Notes: generated by a model from the letters alone, not told the origin. A DNA stretch of 64,000 nt from Ohtaekwangia sp. (GCF_036568665.1 NZ_DATCSD010000313.1:1569-65568); one strand, 5' to 3'. Shown: positions 18,208-28,569, numbered from the stretch's first letter. Translations and numbers: made by a program.

Positions 18208-20538
18208 CTACGGCTTTGTTCCTACTTCATTCAAATCTACTATACGAACCTCCACGCGTCTGCCTTCTTCTTTGGTGGTGGCTACATCTTTGGTAGCTCC
18301 GTATCCCTTGGCAACAATGCGTCTGCGCACTACGCCTTTGTGGTTGAAGTAATCGAGAATAGCAATGGCGCGTTTGTTAGACAGTTCGCGGTTCAACGCT
18401 TCCGTACCTTCTGCTGACGCGAAACCGGAAATCTCTACACCGAGGTCTGGCGATTTCTTGAGCTCGGCTAATATAGCATCGAGCTGCGCGTTATACTGTG
18501 CTTTCAGATCGCTCTTGCCTGCATCAAAGTATATCTTGGCAGCTTTTGTAAGCGCAGTTTTATCGTAGTTGGATTTCTTACCCGCTTGCTCTTTCTGTTT
18601 CTTCGCTTCTTCGGTAAATACGAAAGTCGGCAGCGAGAAAATGGTTTTGCCGTCTACCTGCTTCTGCTCAAATTTACTTTCGTCACTTTCATCGTAGTAG
18701 TATGTGCGTGTAGCCACCTCGATGCGTGAGTTCTCTTTTTCGTTGAAGTTCACATCTTCGATCGGGTCTTTCATCTGGATCAGGTCGGTGAGGTAATTGA
18801 TACCATCCTTATCGCCAGAAGCCATCAGGTCGAGCATCAGGTCATATACATCTACATTGCCCGTTTGCACCAGTTTCGCTTCATGTGTTTTACGCAAGTT
18901 GCTTTTCACATCCTGGTCGGTATCATAGAATGCATTCTTCACCTGCACCTCTTGTCCTACCACCACATCAAACTGCTTAATGGTTTTCAGGTTGATCATC
19001 TGGTATAGCTCATAGAAGTAGCTCTGGTTCGGTATATTTACGTTGATAGTATAAGGAAGAAATCCTTCTGACTCAATCACTATATCATAATCTGTAGCCG
19101 GAGGCAGGATCACGAGATAGTTACCGGTTTCCGGATCCGGATCATATACAAAGTCCAGTTTCTTGTCGGTCTTGTTATCGATCACATATAGTTTGGTGGG
19201 CATCGGCTTGCCGGTTTCAGCATTGAGAATCTTTCCCTTGATCATCGTCAGCGGAATGTTTGCAGACTCTGCCGGCAAATCGAGGTAGTATATATCTTGT
19301 CCGCCCTGGCCTCCTTTACGATCAGATGAAAAGTAAGCACGTGTTCCATCGGCAATCAGCGTAAAGTAATTATCATTCGCAGTCGTATTCACCGGGTATC
19401 CCATGTTCTCGGGAGAGCTCCAGTTCTTATCTACCATTTTGGAAACAAAGATGTCGCGTCCGCCCATCGAGTTGTGACCGTCAGAAGTAAAGAACAACGT
19501 CTTCTGATCCGGATGAATGAACGGTGCATCTTCATTGGCTTTCGTATTAACCGGTGCACCCAGGTTTACCGGGTTGCTCCAGGTTCCGTTAGATTGCAGC
19601 GTTGTCTTATATATATCCAGTCCGCCCTGTCCGCCCAGGCGGTCGCTGGCAAAATATATAGTCTTGCCATCGGGAGTGATACTCGCAGTTGATTCCAGGT
19701 ACTTCGGTGTATTGAGGTTGGGTGTAAGCAATGCCGGTTTACCCCATGCATCACCGGTCTTGGTTATTTGATATAGTCCTCCGGGATCCGTTGAACCTCC
19801 CATAAAGATGATCATCTTCTGTCCATCGGCAGAAATACCAGCCGTCCCTACATTGTAATCGTGCGCTATCGGTATAAGTTTAGGTTCCGTCCATGAGCCG
19901 TGATCATTATACGATATATAGATCTCTTCAATAAATTTGTCGCCCGTGCGGGTCTTGCCTGTGTTGGGGCGAAGAGCCGTATAGGCCATCACACTTTCAT
20001 CAGCCGAAACAACCGGGTTGTATTCGGTATATTTTGTATTTACCAATGGTGAGTTGAAGTAACTTACTTTGAAGTTGCGCGGCACCGACATCAACGCCAC
20101 TGCGTTGTGGCAGGTTTGTATAGCTTCATCAGCCTGTACCATCGCTTTTTTATCGGCCTTGTTGCTGTTCTCGCGAAACTTGGTAAAGCATTCAATAGCC
20201 TTCTGCAGGTTCTCATCCTTCAGATAGATACTGCCGAGGTCGTAGTATAATGATATAGGCCAGCCTTTACCATTCTTGATAGCATATTCAAAATAGGGTA
20301 TAGCTTTAATTTGTTCACTGAGTTCGGGTGACTTTTCGTAGCAAACACCTGTCTTGTAATGCACGTTTGGATCTTTTTCGCCCGCATTTATGGCATCCAG
20401 ATATTTTGGTAAAGCTGCATCGTAACTTTTAACACTGAAATACCGTTCAGCTTCAGCCAATGCTTTGGCGTCCTGGGCAAACGAAGCCGTTGCAAAAAGT
20501 AAGCAGAGCAACAACAAGTAAATGGTCTTCTTCATCAT
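18208..20538 (-). CDS. OmpA-family protein with TPR, PD40 propeller, carboxypeptidase-regulatory-like and OmpA-C domains (PorE-like architecture)
   Basis: Signal peptide; TPR helices; PD40 repeats (EYNPVVSADES, ESTASITPDGKTIYFASDR, EDAPFIHPDQKTLFFTSDGH); IYFD...EISGFAS...ELSNKRA...GYG...RRVEVRI. Confidence 0.88.
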   Translation of the reverse strand: MMKKTIYLLLLCLLFATASFAQDAKALAEAERYFSVKSYDAALPKYLDAINAGEKDPNVHYKTGVCYEKSPELSEQIKAIPYFEYAIKNGKGWPISLYYDLGSIYLKDENLQKAIECFTKFRENSNKADKKAMVQADEAIQTCHNAVALMSVPRNFKVSYFNSPLVNTKYTEYNPVVSADESVMAYTALRPNTGKTRTGDKFIEEIYISYNDHGSWTEPKLIPIAHDYNVGTAGISADGQKMIIFMGGSTDPGGLYQITKTGDAWGKPALLTPNLNTPKYLESTASITPDGKTIYFASDRLGGQGGLDIYKTTLQSNGTWSNPVNLGAPVNTKANEDAPFIHPDQKTLFFTSDGHNSMGGRDIFVSKMVDKNWSSPENMGYPVNTTANDNYFTLIADGTRAYFSSDRKGGQGGQDIYYLDLPAESANIPLTMIKGKILNAETGKPMPTKLYVIDNKTDKKLDFVYDPDPETGNYLVILPPATDYDIVIESEGFLPYTINVNIPNQSYFYELYQMINLKTIKQFDVVVGQEVQVKNAFYDTDQDVKSNLRKTHEAKLVQTGNVDVYDLMLDLMASGDKDGINYLTDLIQMKDPIEDVNFNEKENSRIEVATRTYYYDESDESKFEQKQVDGKTIFSLPTFVFTEEAKKQKEQAGKKSNYDKTALTKAAKIYFDAGKSDLKAQYNAQLDAILAELKKSPDLGVEISGFASAEGTEALNRELSNKRAIAILDYFNHKGVVRRRIVAKGYGATKDVATTKEEGRRVEVRIVDLNEVGTKP

Positions 20539-20779: not shown

Positions 20780-23700
20780 ATGAGGGCACAAATACTTCAA
20801 TTTCTGGATGTCAAGAGCGGTGAAGGCACCCGCGTGGGGCTGCTGCTCATCATGAGCTTTTTCATGGGCGTTTTTCTGGCCACGATTAGTGTAGCCTCAC
20901 AAACACTTTTTCTCCAACACTTCGATGAAAAAACCGATCTGCCAATAGCCCTCCTCGTTTCCGGTGCCTTTGGTCTGGTAGCGACCATCCTCTATAACTT
21001 TTTACAGAACAGAATCCCGTTTCAACTGCTGGCGATCATCAGCCTCTCCGTTGTAACAGCTCTCACAGCCTTTATCGAGTTCGGTGAAATCTTTTTCAAC
21101 GATTCCAAAACCATCTTCTTCCTCGGCTTTACGCAGATCATTCCGTTCTCATTTATACTATACCTGGTGTTCTGGGGTGCATTTACCCGGATGTTCAACC
21201 TGCGCCAGTCCAAACGCCTGGTGGGTACGGTGGATATAGGCGGACTTATCGCTTCGTTCATCGCCTTCTTCTCGATTCCTCAATTGCTTAACCCTCAAAT
21301 ATTCTTCAAGGGAAAAGAAGGTATATCCGTAGAATCGTTATACACTTTTTCGCTGCTAAGTGTTGCTTTGTTCCTGCTCACGTTCATGTACCTCTCCGTA
21401 AAATACCTGAGCAAGGGAAAGACCTTCGCAGAAGAGAAAGCCATCTATCAGAAACTCCGTTTCAACGACTTCCGGCAGAACCGCTATATATTTTATATGT
21501 CGCTGTTTGTAGTGGCCTCCATGATCGCGCTGAACTTCGTTGACTACTCTTTCCTGAACGTAACAACACTATATTTCACCGACCAGGACGCGCTGGGAAG
21601 CTTTATCAGTTACTTTGAAGGTACCATTGTGATCTTCAGCTTCCTGTTCCAGACTGTAGCTACTGATCGTATTATACAGGAATATGGCATGCGCGTATCG
21701 CTGCTGATCAGTCCGCTGCTCATTGGTTTCTTTACCATCTGCGCGATCGCGCTGGGTATAGTGTTCGGATACTCTCCTGCCGATAATCTGTTTGTGATCT
21801 TCTTTTTGATTATCGCTATCAGTAAATTGTTTATACGCTCGCTCAAAGATTCGCTCGATAACCCGACCTTCAAACTATATCTGCTTCCGATCGAAAGCCA
21901 CATACGCATTGACGTGCAGACCAAGATCGAAGGAATTGTTACTGCCTTTGCCAGTTTGCTGGCCGGTGCGCTTATCATTCTTATTAACCGCGTAGAGATA
22001 TTCGATCTCCTCTATATTTCCATCTTTACTTTCCCCCTGTTAATCATGTGGTATATCGTATCCAACCGCATGCATACCAATTACCGCTATACCTTGCAAG
22101 ATACCTTGTCGCGCAACAAGTCGCGTATAGCCGGTAAAGCAGAGAAGAGTTATACCGTAAGCACCGTGCTTGAACAAGAGATCAACAGCACCGCAGAGGA
22201 TAAAGTATTGTATGGATTAACGCTGATGGAGAAACTGGAGCCTGCTGTTTTTGAAAGCACCGTAATGCGGCTGGCCAACAGCGAATCCAACGTGATCCGT
22301 AAATATGCACTTGAAAAAATAGAAGCACTTGGTCTACAGTCCGACAGTGGCAAGAACGAAATACGTTCCCTCGCAGAGCGTGCGTATGGCGAACTGGAAG
22401 ACAGCGACCTGCTCTCTATATCTCCTGAAAAATTACTCAAGCTCAGCAAATCCGTTAAGCAATCAGACCGTATACTTTCGGCCAAGTTGCTGCGGAAACT
22501 CATCAGTCAGAAAACTATATTTATCCTGCTGGAGTTACTGCGCGATGCCGATCCAAAAGTTCGCTACGAAGCGCTATATACCGCACGCAAAGTAAAACGC
22601 CAGGAAACATGGCCGGTGCTGATCGAGTTACTCGGCTCTCCATCCTATAGCCACCACGCTGCAGCTGCCTTGAAAGAAGTAGGCGAATCGGTATTGCCAA
22701 CACTCGAAGCTGCCTTCCATAAATCAGGGCAAAGCGACCTGGTAATGCTGCGCATTATACAGATCATGGGTCGTATAGGAGGTCGCTACGCATTACAACT
22801 GCAATGGAAAAAAGCAGACTACCCGGATAAGCGCATTGTTAAACAGATACTATATTCTCTTCGCTATCAAAATTACCAGGCACGCGGTAAAGAGATACGC
22901 GATGTAATAAACCTGCTGGAAGGGGAGATCAGCAAAGCACTCTGGAACCTGGCCGCGTTGGATGAATTACCTCAAACCGATGAGTTCTTCTTTTTAAGAC
23001 AAGCCTTACAAGAGGAAGTATTAGACAATTACGACCAGATATATATGTTGTTGTCTATACTGTATGATCCACAGTCAGTACAACTGGTGCGCGAGAATAT
23101 AGAGACACGCGAGCCCGATAACATTGCTTTCGCGATGGAGTTGCTCGACCTGTTTATTGACCAGGAATTAAAACCCAAGCTGCTTCCGTTGCTGGACGAC
23201 TCTCCTACTTCGGTTAAGCTGAAACATTTACAACTTCACTTCCCGCGCGAAAGCTATAATCCGATACAGGTTATCAACTATATATTGAATCGCGACTTTA
23301 ACCTGAACAACCGCTGGACAAAAGCCTGCGCGATACATGCTTCTGCCTTTATAGCAGACTTCCGTATAAGCCGCGGGCTTGTAGCGCAGATGTTCAATCG
23401 CGATAAACTCCTGCAGGAAACTGCCGCGTGGGTGATCTATCATAAAGACCGGAAAGTATACGATACGATACTGCAGCGTTTACCGGAGCGCGATAAAAAA
23501 TTCATTGACTCATCGATCGAGAACAACCAGTTGCTGGATGGTTTGAACGATGGTTTCTTCCTGTGGATTGAGCTTGTAATGTTCATCAAACAGTTGCCGC
23601 TCTTCCAGGATATACATGGCACATTGTTAAGTGATCTGGCTGATAAAATTACACCACTCGATATGGATCGCAATGAGCGTATCAAGTTGGCGAATGATGC

Positions 23701-23977
23701 GCACAATTCTCCTCTGTTGATTGTAGCATCCGGTGAAGTAAAACTGAAAAACAACGGTGATGAAGTAGTAACCCTGAAGAAAGGCGCGATCTATGGAGAG
23801 CTTTTCAGTGATGGTTATGTAGCACCGGTAAATGAAGTGGAAGCTACGCAGCGGGCAGCCGTGTTCAAGATTAACCTCATGGACTTCTATTTCGTTATGG
23901 CGAATCATCATGAGCTTGTACAGGGACTTATCAAGAATATAACAGAAGAACATAAACCTCAATTATTGCAACCTTAA
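20780..23977 (+). CDS. Npt/TLC-like MFS membrane domain fused to HEAT repeats and a cNMP-binding-like domain
   Basis: About 12 hydrophobic segments (FNLRQSKRL, LYLLPI...R...QTKIEG), HEAT-like repeats (LLRDADPKVRYEAL), and a C-terminal cupin-like segment (IVASGEV...LKKGAIYGEL). Confidence 0.75.
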   Translation: MRAQILQFLDVKSGEGTRVGLLLIMSFFMGVFLATISVASQTLFLQHFDEKTDLPIALLVSGAFGLVATILYNFLQNRIPFQLLAIISLSVVTALTAFIEFGEIFFNDSKTIFFLGFTQIIPFSFILYLVFWGAFTRMFNLRQSKRLVGTVDIGGLIASFIAFFSIPQLLNPQIFFKGKEGISVESLYTFSLLSVALFLLTFMYLSVKYLSKGKTFAEEKAIYQKLRFNDFRQNRYIFYMSLFVVASMIALNFVDYSFLNVTTLYFTDQDALGSFISYFEGTIVIFSFLFQTVATDRIIQEYGMRVSLLISPLLIGFFTICAIALGIVFGYSPADNLFVIFFLIIAISKLFIRSLKDSLDNPTFKLYLLPIESHIRIDVQTKIEGIVTAFASLLAGALIILINRVEIFDLLYISIFTFPLLIMWYIVSNRMHTNYRYTLQDTLSRNKSRIAGKAEKSYTVSTVLEQEINSTAEDKVLYGLTLMEKLEPAVFESTVMRLANSESNVIRKYALEKIEALGLQSDSGKNEIRSLAERAYGELEDSDLLSISPEKLLKLSKSVKQSDRILSAKLLRKLISQKTIFILLELLRDADPKVRYEALYTARKVKRQETWPVLIELLGSPSYSHHAAAALKEVGESVLPTLEAAFHKSGQSDLVMLRIIQIMGRIGGRYALQLQWKKADYPDKRIVKQILYSLRYQNYQARGKEIRDVINLLEGEISKALWNLAALDELPQTDEFFFLRQALQEEVLDNYDQIYMLLSILYDPQSVQLVRENIETREPDNIAFAMELLDLFIDQELKPKLLPLLDDSPTSVKLKHLQLHFPRESYNPIQVINYILNRDFNLNNRWTKACAIHASAFIADFRISRGLVAQMFNRDKLLQETAAWVIYHKDRKVYDTILQRLPERDKKFIDSSIENNQLLDGLNDGFFLWIELVMFIKQLPLFQDIHGTLLSDLADKITPLDMDRNERIKLANDAHNSPLLIVASGEVKLKNNGDEVVTLKKGAIYGELFSDGYVAPVNEVEATQRAAVFKINLMDFYFVMANHHELVQGLIKNITEEHKPQLLQP

Positions 23978-23986
23978 ACTTTACCC

Positions 23987-25432
23987 ATGGCCTTTGACAT
24001 AGATGTACTCATCGTTTTCGCTGACCGTGATAACGAGACTACCGGGAAGAACGAACCGGGCTGGGTTTCACATTTCAAAAAATTCCTGGAGCTTATGCTT
24101 ACCCAGGTGTTGGGCGCGAAACCAAATATACTCCTGAAAGGAGAACACGATTCAATCACAGCTCCACGTCTCGATAACGTGGGCGTGTTAGTACCCGTAC
24201 TCTCCAAAGATTTTATAGAGTCGGGCCACTGCCTCGATCATGTAGAAACTTTTTTCAAATCTATTGAGTCGACTACCAAAAACAGGAACCGCGTTTTTAA
24301 AGTATTCAGAACTCCGCTCTCCGTTCATGAGCAACCTCCACGCGTGCGCGATCTACTGGGCTATGAAATGTACCAGCTCGATCCGGACTCTGGCGAGATA
24401 CGCGAATATACCGACTACTTCAGCACAGAAGCAGAACGCCAGTACTGGATGAAAATGGTTGACCTCGCGTACGATATATATGAGATACTGCTCTTTTTGA
24501 AAGACAACACTTCGCCTGCCGAAGTAAAGACTATATACAAGCGTAAAACTATATACCTCGCAGAAACAGGCCACGATCTTTCCGTTCAGCGTAACATTAT
24601 AAAGCGCGAGTTACAACGGCATGGCTATAACATTTTGCCCAACCAGACATTGCCGGGAAATATAGCAGACCTTGAAAAACTGGTACGCAAGAGTCTGGAA
24701 GAATCAAGTCTGTCAATACACCTGATCGGCAGTGCCTATGGCGAAATACCGGAAGGCTCTGATAAATCGGTAGTAGATATACAGAACCGTATAGCAGCCG
24801 AGAAGAGTATACAGGCGAAAGAAAACAACCAGGAGTTTACACGACTCATCTGGATTTCGCCTAACCTGACGCATGCCAGTGAACGTCAAAAAGCATTTAT
24901 AGAGAATATCAAGCGCGATGTAGAAGCACAGGAAGGTGCAGAGATTCTGCAAACTCCGCTGGAAGACTTCAAAAATATTATGCGCGAAGAGTTAGAAGAG
25001 GCAGGAGAAAAACGTGTATCGCCAGAAACACGCGGCCGTTCTATATACTTTATGCACGACAAGATCGATCACAACGAAGCGCTACCTTTTATAGAAGTAC
25101 TGCAACGCTCAGGCTTTGAAGTGCTGATGCCGGAGTTTGAAGGCGAGTTATTGGAGCTTCGCCAAAAACATATAGACAATCTGCGCAACCTCGATGGCGC
25201 TATTATCTATAAAGGAAAAGTAAATGAACAATGGGTGCGCATGAAAGCGCTTGATCTGCTGAAGGCTCCAGGCTTCGGACGCAAGAAGCCGATCGTAGCC
25301 AAAGCCATTGTTACCGGTTCAGCATCATCCGCTAATGTGGAAAGTTACCGGAGTCAAAACCTGCGGGTTATTGATGGCACGCGTAACGCAACTGAATCTC
25401 TCCAGAATTTTTTACAGGAATTTAAAGCCTAA
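23987..25432 (+). CDS. Protein with three tandem TIR/DUF4062-like domains; first TIR lacks the catalytic Glu
   Basis: DIDVLIVFADRDN..GWV, VLVPVLSKDFIESGHCLDHV; second unit KTIYLAET..ELQRHGY..SIHLIG..YG; third unit RSIYFMHD..GFEV..LDGAIIYKG. Confidence 0.7.
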   Translation: MAFDIDVLIVFADRDNETTGKNEPGWVSHFKKFLELMLTQVLGAKPNILLKGEHDSITAPRLDNVGVLVPVLSKDFIESGHCLDHVETFFKSIESTTKNRNRVFKVFRTPLSVHEQPPRVRDLLGYEMYQLDPDSGEIREYTDYFSTEAERQYWMKMVDLAYDIYEILLFLKDNTSPAEVKTIYKRKTIYLAETGHDLSVQRNIIKRELQRHGYNILPNQTLPGNIADLEKLVRKSLEESSLSIHLIGSAYGEIPEGSDKSVVDIQNRIAAEKSIQAKENNQEFTRLIWISPNLTHASERQKAFIENIKRDVEAQEGAEILQTPLEDFKNIMREELEEAGEKRVSPETRGRSIYFMHDKIDHNEALPFIEVLQRSGFEVLMPEFEGELLELRQKHIDNLRNLDGAIIYKGKVNEQWVRMKALDLLKAPGFGRKKPIVAKAIVTGSASSANVESYRSQNLRVIDGTRNATESLQNFLQEFKA

Positions 25433-25434
25433 CC

Positions 25435-28400
25435 ATGCGTGAGGTAAATGTAGATACACTGGCCGCAAACCCGTTCCCCGGATTACGGCCATTCAAGATC
25501 GAAGAGAGCCACTTATTCTTTGGCCGCGAAGGTCAGAGTGATGAGGTGCTGCTAAAGCTTTCGAAGAACCGTTTTGTTGGTGTAATTGGTCCTTCCGGTA
25601 GCGGTAAATCTTCTTTCATTTATTGTGGTGTGATGCCGATCCTCTACGGAGGATTTTTAACCGATGCCAGTCCTAACTGGGAAGTAGTGGTTACTCGCCC
25701 CGGTGCAGGCCCTATCGATAACCTGGCGGAAGCGTTGTTAAAAAATAACCCGGAATACCAAGAAGCTGATACCGAAGAGAAAAAAATCAAGCGTACTATA
25801 TTTTCTACGTTGCTGCGAAGCAGTTCGTTGGGATTGGTAGAAGCAATTGAACAAACACGCAAGGATGCTGATGTAAATTACCTGGTGCTGGTCGATCAGT
25901 TCGAAGAACTTTTCCGATTCAAGGAAGGACTTGATGCCAACTCGATAAACGAGACACTCGCATTCGTGAATTTGTTAATGGAAGCCGTTAACTATCCGGA
26001 TGCCCCTATATATGTAGCCATCACCATGCGCTCTGACTTTATTGGTGATTGCGCTCAATTCCCTGAACTTACCCGTAAGATAAACGATAGCCACTATTTG
26101 ATTCCGCAGTTAACGCGCGATCAAAAACGTAAAGCTATAGAAGGCCCAGTTGCTGTGGGGGGTGCTATCATTGCTCCGCGCCTGGTGCAACAGTTGTTAA
26201 ATGATTTGGGAGATAATCCGGATCAGCTTCCTATTCTTCAGCACGCGCTGATGCGTACATGGAGTTACTGGTCATCGTATCGCGATTACGAAGAAGAGCC
26301 GGTTGACCTGAAGCACTACGAAGCGATTGGTACGATGTCAGAAGCATTGTCGCAGCACGCGAACGAAGCGTATGACGAACTGGATGAAGACCAGAAGCGC
26401 ATTTGTGAAATGCTTTTCAAGGCGATCACTGAAAAACGCGGTGAGAACTTTGGTATACGAAGACCTACACGTTTAAGCGAGATCGCTTCGATCGCCGATG
26501 CCTCGGAGCAGGACGTTGTTGCTGTGATCGATCTCTTCCGCGAACCCGGTCGTTCCTTACTTACGCCTGCGTTCGGCTCTGCTATATCTTCCAAAGCGAT
26601 GGTCGATATATCGCACGAAAGTCTTATGCGTATATGGGTACGGTTGAAGAACTGGGTGGACGATGAAGCGGATGCTGTGCAGATGTATACCCGTTTGGCA
26701 GAAGCAGCCGCGATGCACCAGGTGGGCAAAGCCGGTCTGTGGCGTCCACCGGATTTACAGCTCGCCCTTAACTGGCAGGCAAAGCACAAGCCTACACTCG
26801 TGTGGGGCCAGCGCTATAACCCTGCGTTCGAGCGTACCATGATCTTCCTTGAGTATTCGAAGAAGGAATGGGAGACTGAGCAACGTATAAAAGAATTAGA
26901 ACAGAAGCGTAAACTGAAACGCGCCCGTATAGTAGCCCTCGTGCTGGGTACGGCCGTTGTAATTTGCCTGCTGTTCCTCATGTATGCCTTCATTCAAAAA
27001 TCAGAAGCCGATAAACAACGTCTGCAAGCAGAACGAAATGCAAAAGAGGCGGAGGATGCAAGAAAGGTAGCGGAAGCAAAAAAACTGGAAGCTGAAAAAG
27101 CTACAGCCGCTGCGTTGGCCGCCAAAGAAGCAGAAGCAAAACAACGTGAGCTTGCACAAGCTGCCGAACAAGCCGCTATACAAAATGCCGAACTTGCCAA
27201 ACGTAACGCTGCCGAAGCGCGAAGAAATGCAGAGGAAGCAAGAGTAAACGCACGACTGGCACAAACCAACGAGAAGATTGCGAAAGAACAAGAGTTGATC
27301 GCGATCAAGAACGCAGCCGAAGCGTTGCGCCAGCGATATATAGCACAGGCGAAAGCAATGGCCGTGAAGTCGAAAGAGTTGAACGATCCGGAGCAGCAGG
27401 CACTCATTGCCCAGCAGGCATTCAAATTCAACTCCGAGCACGAAGGCTATGTATATGATAACGATATATACAACGGACTATATTTCGCGCTCAAGAAACA
27501 GGAACATCCGCTTACCAAAAGTCTGGAAGCGCACGAGCGTGGTGCAGCACGCGCACTCGTTACGCGCGTATCCAGCAACCATATATACTCTGCCGGAAGT
27601 GATGGCCGCATTATTCGCTGGAGCGAACAAGGCAATCAATGGAAATCAGAGATCCTGGTAAACCAGACAAACTATCAATACTACTCACTCGATGTGAGTC
27701 CGGATGGTAACTGGCTTGCAGCAGCAGGTTTAAATACGCAGAACGAAAAGCGTAACTATATCGAGTTGTATAACCTCAACAACATGTCGGCATCACCGAA
27801 GAAAATTGAAGGATATACTTACGCGATCGAGAACCTGAACTTTACACCCGACAGCAAAGGATTTTTTGCGCGTGATAATTCCGGAAGGAGCATTCGCTAT
27901 TCTGATCTCACCAAGAGTCAGGAAGTGATCAGCTCACCGATAAAGATCAACGCGATACATCTCAGTGCTGATGGCAGCAAACTGGCCGGTGCAGGCGAGA
28001 ATGGAAGTCTCTTTATATGGGATGTAAAAAACAACTTTGCTGTAACCGAAATAAAAGATCTCGGCTCTCACCTCACCTCGGTAACCTTCGCGCCTGAAGG
28101 CAGAAGAATTGTAGTGGGCGATAACTCCGGCCTGGTAAAGATCTTCGACATGCAAAGTGGTTTGGTGGTACGTATACTTTCCGGACATACTTCTTCTATC
28201 GAACAGATACGTTTCAATCATGCCGGTACATTTATGGCTACTGCCAGCAAAGACAAAACCGTACGCTTGTGGAATGTGAATCGTTTGAAGGAACAGCCGA
28301 TCGTACTAAGCGATCACAGCGACTGGGTATGGAGTGTTGCTTTTACTCCGGATGATGAACAGTTGCTGGCCAGTGTACACAGCTCGGTAGAAACCGTGAA

Positions 28401-28569
28401 AGGTGTAGAACATACCATTCACGCATGGCCTACCAAAATACCGGTAATGTCAACCGTACTCTGCGATAAAGTAAAACGGAATATCAATAAGGACGAGTGG
28501 GAAATTTTTGTGGGAGACGACTTGCCATACGAATCGACCTGTGCATCGTTACCTGCTAACAATCATTGA
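25435..28569 (+). CDS. nSTAND1-type STAND NTPase with TM helix, Ala-rich coiled coil and WD40 propeller
   Basis: NPFPGLRPF..FFGRE, Walker A GPSGSGKS, Walker B LVDQFEELF, TMRSDF, LPILQHAL, HESL..W.RL..W; TM at 26929-26994; WD40 repeats (LSGHTSSIEQIRFN..MATASKDKTVRLWNV). Confidence 0.9.
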   Translation: MREVNVDTLAANPFPGLRPFKIEESHLFFGREGQSDEVLLKLSKNRFVGVIGPSGSGKSSFIYCGVMPILYGGFLTDASPNWEVVVTRPGAGPIDNLAEALLKNNPEYQEADTEEKKIKRTIFSTLLRSSSLGLVEAIEQTRKDADVNYLVLVDQFEELFRFKEGLDANSINETLAFVNLLMEAVNYPDAPIYVAITMRSDFIGDCAQFPELTRKINDSHYLIPQLTRDQKRKAIEGPVAVGGAIIAPRLVQQLLNDLGDNPDQLPILQHALMRTWSYWSSYRDYEEEPVDLKHYEAIGTMSEALSQHANEAYDELDEDQKRICEMLFKAITEKRGENFGIRRPTRLSEIASIADASEQDVVAVIDLFREPGRSLLTPAFGSAISSKAMVDISHESLMRIWVRLKNWVDDEADAVQMYTRLAEAAAMHQVGKAGLWRPPDLQLALNWQAKHKPTLVWGQRYNPAFERTMIFLEYSKKEWETEQRIKELEQKRKLKRARIVALVLGTAVVICLLFLMYAFIQKSEADKQRLQAERNAKEAEDARKVAEAKKLEAEKATAAALAAKEAEAKQRELAQAAEQAAIQNAELAKRNAAEARRNAEEARVNARLAQTNEKIAKEQELIAIKNAAEALRQRYIAQAKAMAVKSKELNDPEQQALIAQQAFKFNSEHEGYVYDNDIYNGLYFALKKQEHPLTKSLEAHERGAARALVTRVSSNHIYSAGSDGRIIRWSEQGNQWKSEILVNQTNYQYYSLDVSPDGNWLAAAGLNTQNEKRNYIELYNLNNMSASPKKIEGYTYAIENLNFTPDSKGFFARDNSGRSIRYSDLTKSQEVISSPIKINAIHLSADGSKLAGAGENGSLFIWDVKNNFAVTEIKDLGSHLTSVTFAPEGRRIVVGDNSGLVKIFDMQSGLVVRILSGHTSSIEQIRFNHAGTFMATASKDKTVRLWNVNRLKEQPIVLSDHSDWVWSVAFTPDDEQLLASVHSSVETVKGVEHTIHAWPTKIPVMSTVLCDKVKRNINKDEWEIFVGDDLPYESTCASLPANNH

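Follow-up and report, generated by a model that had tools for sequence, protein, structure and literature searches.

The stretch of DNA analysed here, the window, comprises 64,000 nucleotides of one strand from Ohtaekwangia sp. (GCF_036568665.1 NZ_DATCSD010000313.1:1569-65568). It contains a run of six co-oriented genes, designated g1 to g6 (Table 1), of which the third, g3, is the subject of this report. From the N terminus to the C terminus, the g3 product consists of a STAND nucleoside triphosphatase (NTPase) of the nSTAND1 clade, a 22-residue transmembrane (TM) segment, a helical stalk of approximately 130 residues, a neck and one seven-bladed propeller. The interpretation that we favour, and consider fairly probable, is that g3 encodes a type-II inner-membrane STAND NTPase with a heptad rod and a periplasmic propeller that senses, or docks on, partners in the outer membrane (OM). 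An earlier reading of this DNA, made without database searches (hereinafter the sequence-only reading), had proposed a receptor of this kind. All testable parts of that reading are upheld, with the support that computational evidence can give, and its term 'receptor-like NLR' is a description of the probable mode of working, not a family label.

Table 1. The g3 gene, its parts and the neighbouring genes (positions counted from the first letter of the window)
Feature	Position	Strand	Basis
g1: membrane protein, polytopic, with NTT-like and cNMP-binding-like regions and HEAT repeats	20780..23977	+	Pfam, structure match
g2: TIR-like/DUF4062 ('TIR+DrHyd') protein, likely effector or adaptor in trans	23987..25432	+	Pfam
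g3: nSTAND1 NTPase, TM, heptad stalk, neck, WD40 propeller	25435..28569	+	open reading frame (ORF), 1044 aa
g3, nSTAND1 STAND NTPase (aa 13-429), predicted cytoplasmic	25471..26721	+	PF20703
g3, Walker A GPSGSGKSS (aa 52-60)	25588..25614	+	sequence
g3, Walker B LVLVDQFEE (aa 150-158)	25882..25908	+	sequence
g3, juxtamembrane helical region (aa 430-498), ends in KRKLKRAR	26722..26928	+	helical in both AlphaFold2 models
g3, single TM helix (aa 499-520)	26929..26994	+	Kyte-Doolittle
g3, heptad 'alanine-stripe' stalk (aa 521-650), predicted periplasmic, ~19 nm if straight	26995..27384	+	heptad profile
g3, neck (aa 651-700), conserved, with a pair of short helices between stalk and propeller	27385..27534	+	AlphaFold2
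g3, seven-bladed WD40 propeller (aa 701-1000), predicted to be a sensor or docking domain in the periplasm	27535..28434	+	Pfam WD40/propeller
g3, C-terminal tail (aa 1001-1044) with Cys1010/Cys1036, candidate disulfide	28435..28566	+	alignments
g4: signal peptide, helical N-terminal domain, OM beta-barrel; likeliest propeller partner	28585..29616	+	Pfam
g5: predicted lipoprotein (VVSC lipobox), 4-nt overlap with g4	29613..30917	+	ORF, sequence
terminator-like hairpin, 11 pairs (7 G-C), g5 end	30901..30926	+	consensus scan only
g6: giant secreted protein, type IX secretion system (T9SS) C-terminal sorting domain	31008..37217	+	Por_Secre_tail

The assignment of the NTPase follows from the Pfam family PF20703, which matches g3 with an E value of 1.9e-95 and 321.2 bits (cut-off 27.1) over 372 of the 379 profile positions; a search of the whole genome with the same family agrees with the result for the window. 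Both nucleotide-binding motifs conform to the general patterns, GxxxxGK[ST] for Walker A and hhhhD followed by an acidic residue for Walker B, and the sequence-only reading was correct in calling them intact: in three alignments that extend down to 33% identity, G52, S54, G55, G57, K58, S59 and S60 of the former and D154, Q155, F156, E157 and E158 of the latter are invariant. The orthologues of g3 have the same length and are 68-94% identical to it. Among 53 of these, which span several genera, the mean identity of the NTPase is 0.88, and the best-conserved stretch of the entire protein is the juxtamembrane region, with an identity of 0.95.

Two AlphaFold2 models were obtained, the first with an alignment of the 53 close orthologues, in which the NTPase was poorly predicted (predicted local distance difference test score, pLDDT, 40-80), and the second with 55 sequences at 40-84% identity, in which the mean pLDDT was 82 and that of the NTPase approximately 70-92. 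The best Foldseek match of the full-length model from the deeper alignment is Apaf-1, with approximately 1065-1087 aligned columns (3j2t_A, E 2.5e-20, and also 3shf, 3sfz and 5juy); the global TM-score of these matches is low, 0.22-0.26, so that they place g3 in the Apaf-1/NLR fold class, in which helical and winged-helix modules come after the NTPase, and go no further than the class. Comparison of g3 to the sequences in PDB returned only WD40 matches. Apaf-1 resembles g3 in that a STAND NTPase is followed by a WD40 sensor, and the propeller of g3 (aa 705-999) supplies the C-terminal repeat sensor expected of STAND proteins. However, Apaf-1 is soluble and cytosolic, with an N-terminal CARD effector and two propellers, whereas in g3 a TM and a 130-residue rod are interposed between the NTPase and its only propeller, and a separate gene encodes the candidate effector. 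A fused N-terminal effector is typical, though not universal, among STANDs, and none is present in g3, the NTPase of which begins at residue 13. The statement in the sequence-only reading that there is no N-terminal effector domain therefore stands for g3 itself but not for the locus, because a co-conserved TIR/DUF4062 protein is encoded immediately upstream, the stop codon of g2 lying 2 nt ahead of the g3 start.

Several indirect lines of evidence bear on the topology of the protein. The N terminus of g3 is devoid of any hydrophobic segment and, as noted previously, there is no signal peptide. The sole segment of the protein that exceeds 1.5 on the Kyte-Doolittle scale is IVALVLGTAVVICLLFLMYAFI, with a peak of 2.8, and its coordinates are identical to those originally given for the TM; this segment is 22 aa long in all 53 orthologues. 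Within the 15 residues that precede it in g3, there are 8 Lys or Arg residues, and this bias is a general property of the homologues: in a set of 266, the 15 residues before the TM contain, on average, 6.4 Lys and Arg compared to 2.6 in the 15 residues after it, and the N-side value is the higher one in 263, in accord with the positive-inside rule. A search with the NTPase, TM and stalk as the query yielded 10,132 clusters at E<=1e-30, and among 150 representatives, the best of these clusters at no more than 50% mutual identity, exactly one hydrophobic segment was detected in the whole protein in 146, and a hydrophobic segment follows the NTPase in 149. Given one hydrophobic segment per protein, the chain therefore has no return to the cytoplasm. 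PPC (pre-peptidase C-terminal) domains are typical of secreted proteins; in some long relatives (P0235 and P0224, representatives of clusters at 50% identity), they are located between the WD40 blades, in the part of the protein that follows the TM.

Because the positive-inside bias, the single TM, the PPC domains of the relatives and a pair of Cys residues in the tail (see below) all agree, and because genes for an OM barrel and a lipoprotein are co-conserved downstream, we place the propeller in the periplasm. Judging from these sequence features, g3 is most likely a STAND NTPase that crosses the inner membrane once, in the type-II (N-in, C-out) orientation, with the propeller in the periplasm. 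The division into a cytoplasmic NTPase and a periplasmic propeller that was originally conjectured thus gains computational support from the charge bias, the single TM, the Cys pair, the PPC domains and the neighbouring genes.

The region that follows the TM is, as described before, a coil rich in Ala, Glu and Lys, with A, E, K, Q and R accounting for 73% of aa 521-660, and it displays a striking periodicity. Between residues 518, which is located inside the end of the TM, and 637, Ala occupies 17 of the 18 positions spaced by seven; considering the 29% Ala in the stalk and the seven possible phases, we calculate that such a stripe would arise by chance with a probability of approximately 1e-7. 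In 152 sequences, position 0 of the stripe is Ala in 93% of the cases and position 3 is Gln, Asn or Ala in 77%, and Pro and Gly together make up 0.36%. The stripe is also present in paralogues, in other families and in other classes, and nearly all of the 150 best clusters combine a TM with a stripe of 15-20 heptads.

The length of the stalk is restricted to whole heptads. It is 130 aa in 33 and 137 aa in 20 of the 53 orthologues, with no other length observed, and all gaps in the stalk alignment span 7 or 14 residues. Moreover, the two halves of the stalk vary inversely in length, combining as 45+85, 52+78 or 59+71 to give 130 and as 52+85, 59+78 or 45+92 to give 137. At the C-terminal end, immediately ahead of the neck, the conserved segment AKAMAVKS (aa 638-645) is in a fixed phase with respect to the Ala stripe in 150 of the 152 sequences. 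Since the total length is kept by compensating heptad indels, selection appears to act on the total length and the register, and since the halves change inversely, a continuous rod is a better description of the stalk than a hairpin. In both AlphaFold2 models, helices extend from aa 465 to aa 551, that is, from the juxtamembrane region through the TM, and from aa 558 to aa 646. The conclusion that the stalk is a continuous heptad rod, with a total length fixed in whole heptads, is a supported prediction, and unbroken heptads with a conserved, quantised total length are the properties to be expected of a ruler. Multiplying 126-130 residues by 0.148 nm, we estimate a length of approximately 19 nm for a straight rod, to which an extra heptad would add approximately 1 nm. 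The extended stalk of about 19 nm in the sequence-only reading is accordingly backed by the unbroken heptad phase, the scarcity of Pro and Gly and the compensating 7-residue indels.

Stalk and propeller are linked by the neck, with an identity of 0.76 among the 53 orthologues and, in both models, helices at aa 652-668 and aa 676-688. The Pfam WD40 and propeller families match g3 at approximately aa 694-1000, and both models fold aa 705-999 into seven four-stranded blades with pLDDT above 90, in agreement with the original count of about one WD40 propeller. The Foldseek comparison of the propeller to seven-bladed WD40 structures gives target-normalised TM-scores of 0.85-0.89, and the closest sequences in PDB are the Nostoc WD40 protein 2ymu and PkwA 5yzv. 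Among the orthologues, the identity of the propeller is 0.64, that is, moderate, and the domain is not hypervariable. The tail is short and helical in the AlphaFold2 prediction; Cys1010 and Cys1036 do not vary among close orthologues, show at least 90% conservation in sequences as far away as 40% identity, and also occur in the paralogues and in the distant locus L016.

The genes that surround g3 were compared in 80 loci, all from Bacteroidota, which were the best among at least 590 that were confirmed. The order g1-g2-g3-g4-g5-giant ORF is fixed in nearly all these loci, and g1 is kept in 70, g2 in 65 and g5, as detected by BLAST, in 58, an ORF of 390-490 aa occupying the same position elsewhere. 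The OM barrel gene g4 is next to g3 in 76 of the 80. The median intergenic gaps in the cluster are 3, 3 and -1 nt, the gap between g3 and g4 being 3 nt, and this tight association argues for the earlier suggestion that the stalk reaches partners in the OM. The order g1-g2-g3-g4-g5 is also found in Chryseolinea soli and in another genome, and in C. soli the cluster has the same chromosomal flanks.

The gene g4 matches OMP_b-brl_2 (3.2e-18). In two distant Bacteroidota lineages, the gene that follows the g3 homologue (L015:6336-8924, L016:5748-8339), and so takes the place of the small barrel gene, encodes a TonB-dependent receptor (Plug and barrel). In both, an N-terminal extension of the receptor is homologous to the N-terminal domain of g4, a Cys pair included; the L015 extension and the g4 domain share 31% identity (E 3e-12). 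Because the domain is shared by the barrel and the TonB-dependent receptor partners, it is the likely docking site of the propeller. Further downstream, g6 carries the Por_Secre_tail sorting domain at aa 1990-2064 (2e-14), and an ORF of at least 800 aa comes next in 35 of the 48 loci in which at least 3 kb extend beyond the last recognised cluster gene. A hairpin with a T-run is located at the g5 stop codon, 80 nt ahead of g6; going by the nucleotide sequence, g6 may have a transcript of its own or be reached by read-through.

A paralogous cluster that lacks a g2-type TIR gene is present in this genome (G000:C417:6769-16107, L019) and in other genomes. The L019 cluster consists of a gene for an nSTAND1-TM-stalk-WD40 protein (1047 aa, approximately 40% identical to g3), an OM barrel gene, a lipoprotein gene and a giant ORF that is cut short by the end of the contig.

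On the upstream side, g2 and g1 are the candidates for the output. The Pfam matches of g2 are DUF4062 (7e-5) and TIR_2 (0.008), and distant homologues of g2 are clear TIR_2+DUF4062 proteins, with E values from 1e-17 to 2e-22; no match was obtained for g2 among the sequences in PDB. In the column that holds the canonical TIR catalytic Glu (S-x-W-C-x-x-E in the L015 and L021 homologues), g2 has His85 (SGHCLDHVE). This column is variable in the Cytophagales clade (T/L/E/A/H), and the Glu located two residues further on is kept in 44 of 67 sequences. The g2 protein is seemingly built of three TIR/DUF4062-like units. In g1, HEAT repeats occupy the middle of the protein (HEAT_2, 1.7e-9), the membrane part (aa 124-432) resembles the ADP,ATP carrier 9j3n (E 4.6e-7), and the C-terminal cNMP_binding match is weak (1.3e-3); in the G211 paralogue, the same match is above the Pfam cut-off (6.6e-8). 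Upstream of the TIR gene, in the position of g1, locus L018 encodes a SLATT effector with two TM segments (L018:10111-11796) and locus L015 a TrkA_N+RyR membrane protein (L015:13617-15566). Because cNMP-like, SLATT and TrkA_N+RyR genes occupy this position in three lineages, the output arm appears to combine a TIR/DrHyd protein with a membrane protein whose cytoplasmic domain is of a ligand-binding type.

Part of this architecture is on record. The nSTAND1 clade of STAND NTPases (PF20703) was described by Kaur, Iyer, Burroughs and Aravind (eLife 2021, PMC8195603), and Figure 2-source data 1 of that work lists 'nSTAND1+TM' 412 times and 'nSTAND1+TM+BetaPropeller' 278 times. The table includes a 1043-aa Cytophagales protein annotated 'nSTAND1+TM+PspA+BetaPropeller' with 'TIR+DrHyd' upstream, as well as Bacteroidales entries with 'TMx11+cNMP' upstream, and the layout of g1, g2 and g3 in the window is of the operon type 'TIR+DrHyd-> nSTAND1+TM+BetaPropeller' in its rows. 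In the passages of the main text considered here, nSTAND1 is named once and treated as a component of conflict systems, none of the six passages on 'transmembrane' concerns nSTAND1, and TM topology, a heptad ruler and OM barrel, lipoprotein or T9SS partners are not discussed. We found no paper on a g3-type topology, stalk or set of OM partners. No functional study was found behind the legacy name 'carbon uptake protein Hat', and the name is uninformative. The family and the domain string are thus known already, and what the present analysis adds is the case for a periplasmic propeller, the compensated heptad stalk, the OM partners that share an N-terminal domain, and the housekeeping-like inheritance.

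From the domains, the single TM, the heptad ruler, the conservation and the synteny, we infer a scheme in which the topology, the contacts, the direction of signalling and the output would be as follows. A cytoplasmic nSTAND1 switch would be connected to a 22-residue TM helix that runs without a break into a heptad rod of approximately 126-130 residues, with Ala at one core position, Gln, Asn or Ala at the other, and a constant length of about 19 nm. The rod would place the neck, the propeller and the probably disulfide-stapled tail close to the periplasmic side of the outer membrane. There, the propeller could dock on, or monitor, the OM barrel g4 by way of the periplasmic N-terminal domain of the barrel protein, the lipoprotein g5, or both; both these genes are genetically tied to the giant T9SS surface protein g6. 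An altered contact of the propeller would change the oligomeric state or the register of the stalk and the TM, and this change, in turn, would flip the NTPase in the manner of Apaf-1 and the NLRs, with exchange of the nucleotide and oligomerisation. Once flipped, the NTPase would engage the TIR/DUF4062 protein g2 and the NTT-like, cNMP-domain membrane protein g1. A more inclusive version of this scheme, to which we assign a distinctly lower likelihood and which we put forward tentatively, holds that all six genes form one vertically inherited trans-envelope receptor: the state of g6, the barrel and the lipoprotein would be sensed in the periplasm by a propeller on a heptad-quantised ruler and reported across the inner membrane to an Apaf-1-like switch, which would act through a TIR/DrHyd protein with altered catalysis and an NTT-like nucleotide transporter.

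Several observations count against the type-II receptor with OM partners. L015 lacks the tail Cys pair, as do about half of the representatives at 50% identity. In both AlphaFold2 models, the stalk is broken near aa 552-565, with pLDDT below 50. The Ala/Gln/Asn core of the rod is weakly hydrophobic, and the rod may consist of just one helix. The evidence for contact of the propeller with g4 or g5 is synteny. Finally, TM-bearing nSTAND1 proteins are also encoded in Actinobacteria and Chloroflexi, which have no classical outer membrane; the OM partner, accordingly, is not general to the nSTAND1+TM architecture. The published table (PMC8195603), which is our basis for the spread of g3-type proteins beyond Bacteroidota, contains nSTAND1+TM entries from Verrucomicrobia, Acidobacteria, Chloroflexi, Actinobacteria and Cyanobacteria.

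The strongest competing explanation is that the cluster is an anti-phage or conflict module, in which a sensor that watches the periplasm triggers nucleotide chemistry by the TIR/DrHyd protein, along with the membrane effector g1, leading to abortive infection. The clade was first described from conflict systems, among which operons of the type 'TIR+DrHyd-> nSTAND1+TM+BetaPropeller' are listed (PMC8195603). The distant versions of the cluster resemble such systems; the partners of the distant homologues are clear TIR_2 domains and, in L018, also a pore-type SLATT effector. A further precedent is provided by the type-II ParA NTPases (PCTM, TIR-ParA; bioRxiv 10.64898/2026.10.19.760177), which, like g3, combine a cytoplasmic P-loop NTPase, a single TM, a variable periplasmic sensor and a TIR partner, and for which a role as receptor-like immune sensors of periplasmic events has been proposed. 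However, the ParA proteins are SIMIBI rather than STAND NTPases, and a long heptad stalk or OM partner genes have not been described for them. The antiviral STANDs (Avs, bNACHT and related proteins; PMC13581612) likewise join a STAND NTPase to a repeat sensor in association with TIR-type effectors, but their sensors are described as recognising foreign molecules inside the cell, in contrast to the predicted periplasmic sensor and the conserved gene order of g3.

The distribution and evolution of the cluster fit poorly with such a role. We identified g3 in 69 of the 101 genera of the family and in 15 of 301 genomes sampled over the phylum. A patchy, mobile distribution with variable neighbourhoods was not observed: the order is fixed over the 80 loci, the flanks are conserved in C. 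soli, and the NTPase is 88% identical across genera. The whole-genome search detected only two nSTAND1 genes, the base composition is unremarkable, with no GC anomaly, and among the PADLOC models only marginal matches to the P-loop of g3 were found (mad3, 5.8e-4, and mad8, 1.7e-3, approximately 20-35 residues each), none amounting to a model for the system. Furthermore, the propeller, with its identity of 0.64, is not hypervariable, the canonical TIR Glu column is variable, and an OM barrel, a lipoprotein and a T9SS cargo would be unusual components of a defence system. Compared to the operons of Kaur et al., g3 has the same NTPase family and the same domain string but, unlike a mobile conflict system, is inherited vertically in a fixed order. 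Because of the high NTPase identity, the presence in 69 of 101 genera, the two copies, the lack of a PADLOC model, the plain composition and the variable TIR Glu, we prefer a domesticated role: in Cytophagales, the cluster has the appearance of a device for envelope signalling that is fixed, passed on vertically and descended from TIR-STAND conflict systems, rather than that of a mobile anti-phage gene. We regard this domesticated envelope-signalling role as reasonably likely and rank it above active anti-phage defence, which we consider doubtful.

A second, rather improbable alternative is that g3 is a structural or assembly factor, that is, a tether or ruler between the inner and outer membranes in the manner of TolA or Lpp, with the NTPase controlling assembly or energising a process in the OM, such as the display of g6, in an inside-out direction and with no cytoplasmic signal. 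The fixed, heptad-quantised length of the stalk, the constant OM barrel, lipoprotein and T9SS cargo neighbours, and weak compositional stalk matches to TolA- and GltJ-like proteins are all compatible with this possibility, and domain II of TolA and Lpp do resemble g3 in that a long helix rich in Ala, Glu and Lys is anchored in a membrane and has a globular part at the far end. Nevertheless, identity with TolA was rejected, the matches being far under the cut-offs and confined to the low-complexity stalk (NF007065, 20.2 bits vs 213; TIGR02794, 16.3 vs 59.45), as were the weak GltJ-like matches, which are compositional; in the absence of homology, the comparison to TolA and Lpp is one of how the proteins work. 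STAND NTPases are switches, not motors, and TolA is coupled to the proton-motive force through TolQR, whereas g3 would act as an ATPase switch. The co-conserved TIR/DUF4062 and cNMP-domain proteins also suggest signalling rather than assembly. A precedent for signalling across the periplasm that is critically dependent on length is the Lpp/RcsF system, in which length matters in whole heptads, as in Lpp+14 and Lpp+21 (PMC5736177).

The third alternative retains the topology but has the stalk folded back on itself, as an antiparallel hairpin of the Alacoil type, or flexible, so that the propeller would remain near the inner membrane and fall short of the OM. Ala at every seventh residue is a signature of tightly packed antiparallel helices, too, and both AlphaFold2 models have a helix break near aa 552-565. 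However, the pLDDT at the break is below 50, and the heptad phase continues through aa 552-565 without Pro or Gly. In addition, the halves are unequal (approximately 45 vs approximately 85 residues) and vary inversely around a constant total, whereas the arms of a hairpin would be expected to vary together. We therefore deem a folded stalk improbable. That the hydrophobic helix is re-entrant or buried in a protein core, leaving the whole of g3, WD40 included, in the cytoplasm, is suggested by the fact that canonical WD40 repeats are known mostly from cytoplasmic proteins, but is highly implausible considering the sole 22-residue segment at 2.8 on the Kyte-Doolittle scale flanked by KRKLKRAR, the charge bias kept in 263 of 266 homologues, the PPC domains after the TM in relatives, the tail Cys pair and the genes for OM proteins downstream.

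STAND and NLR proteins are understood as sensors that act inside the cell. If the type-II topology that we favour for g3 is true, there exists a large, widespread STAND subfamily with the sensor outside the cytoplasmic membrane, and its switch would have to be operated by way of one TM helix and a stiff rod. This would raise the question of how the oligomerisation switch of a STAND protein is driven across a membrane, along with those of the periplasmic ligand of a canonical WD40 propeller and of the way in which protein rulers match the width of the envelope. The stalk of 130 or 137 residues, with its compensating indels, leads to the prediction that function depends on stalk length in whole heptads, and the fixed six-gene Cytophagales operon provides a defined set of partners. 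Should the six genes indeed form one trans-envelope receptor, this would represent the first demonstrated case of an NLR-type switch that serves as a housekeeping outside-in receptor across a bacterial envelope, and a bacterial analogue of signalling by an 'extracellular repeat sensor, TM, TIR' arrangement.

Just upstream of the cluster, on the opposite strand, the window contains a 776-aa ORF (18208-20538, -), in the same place as a 777-aa PD40/OmpA-domain gene in C. soli (L001).

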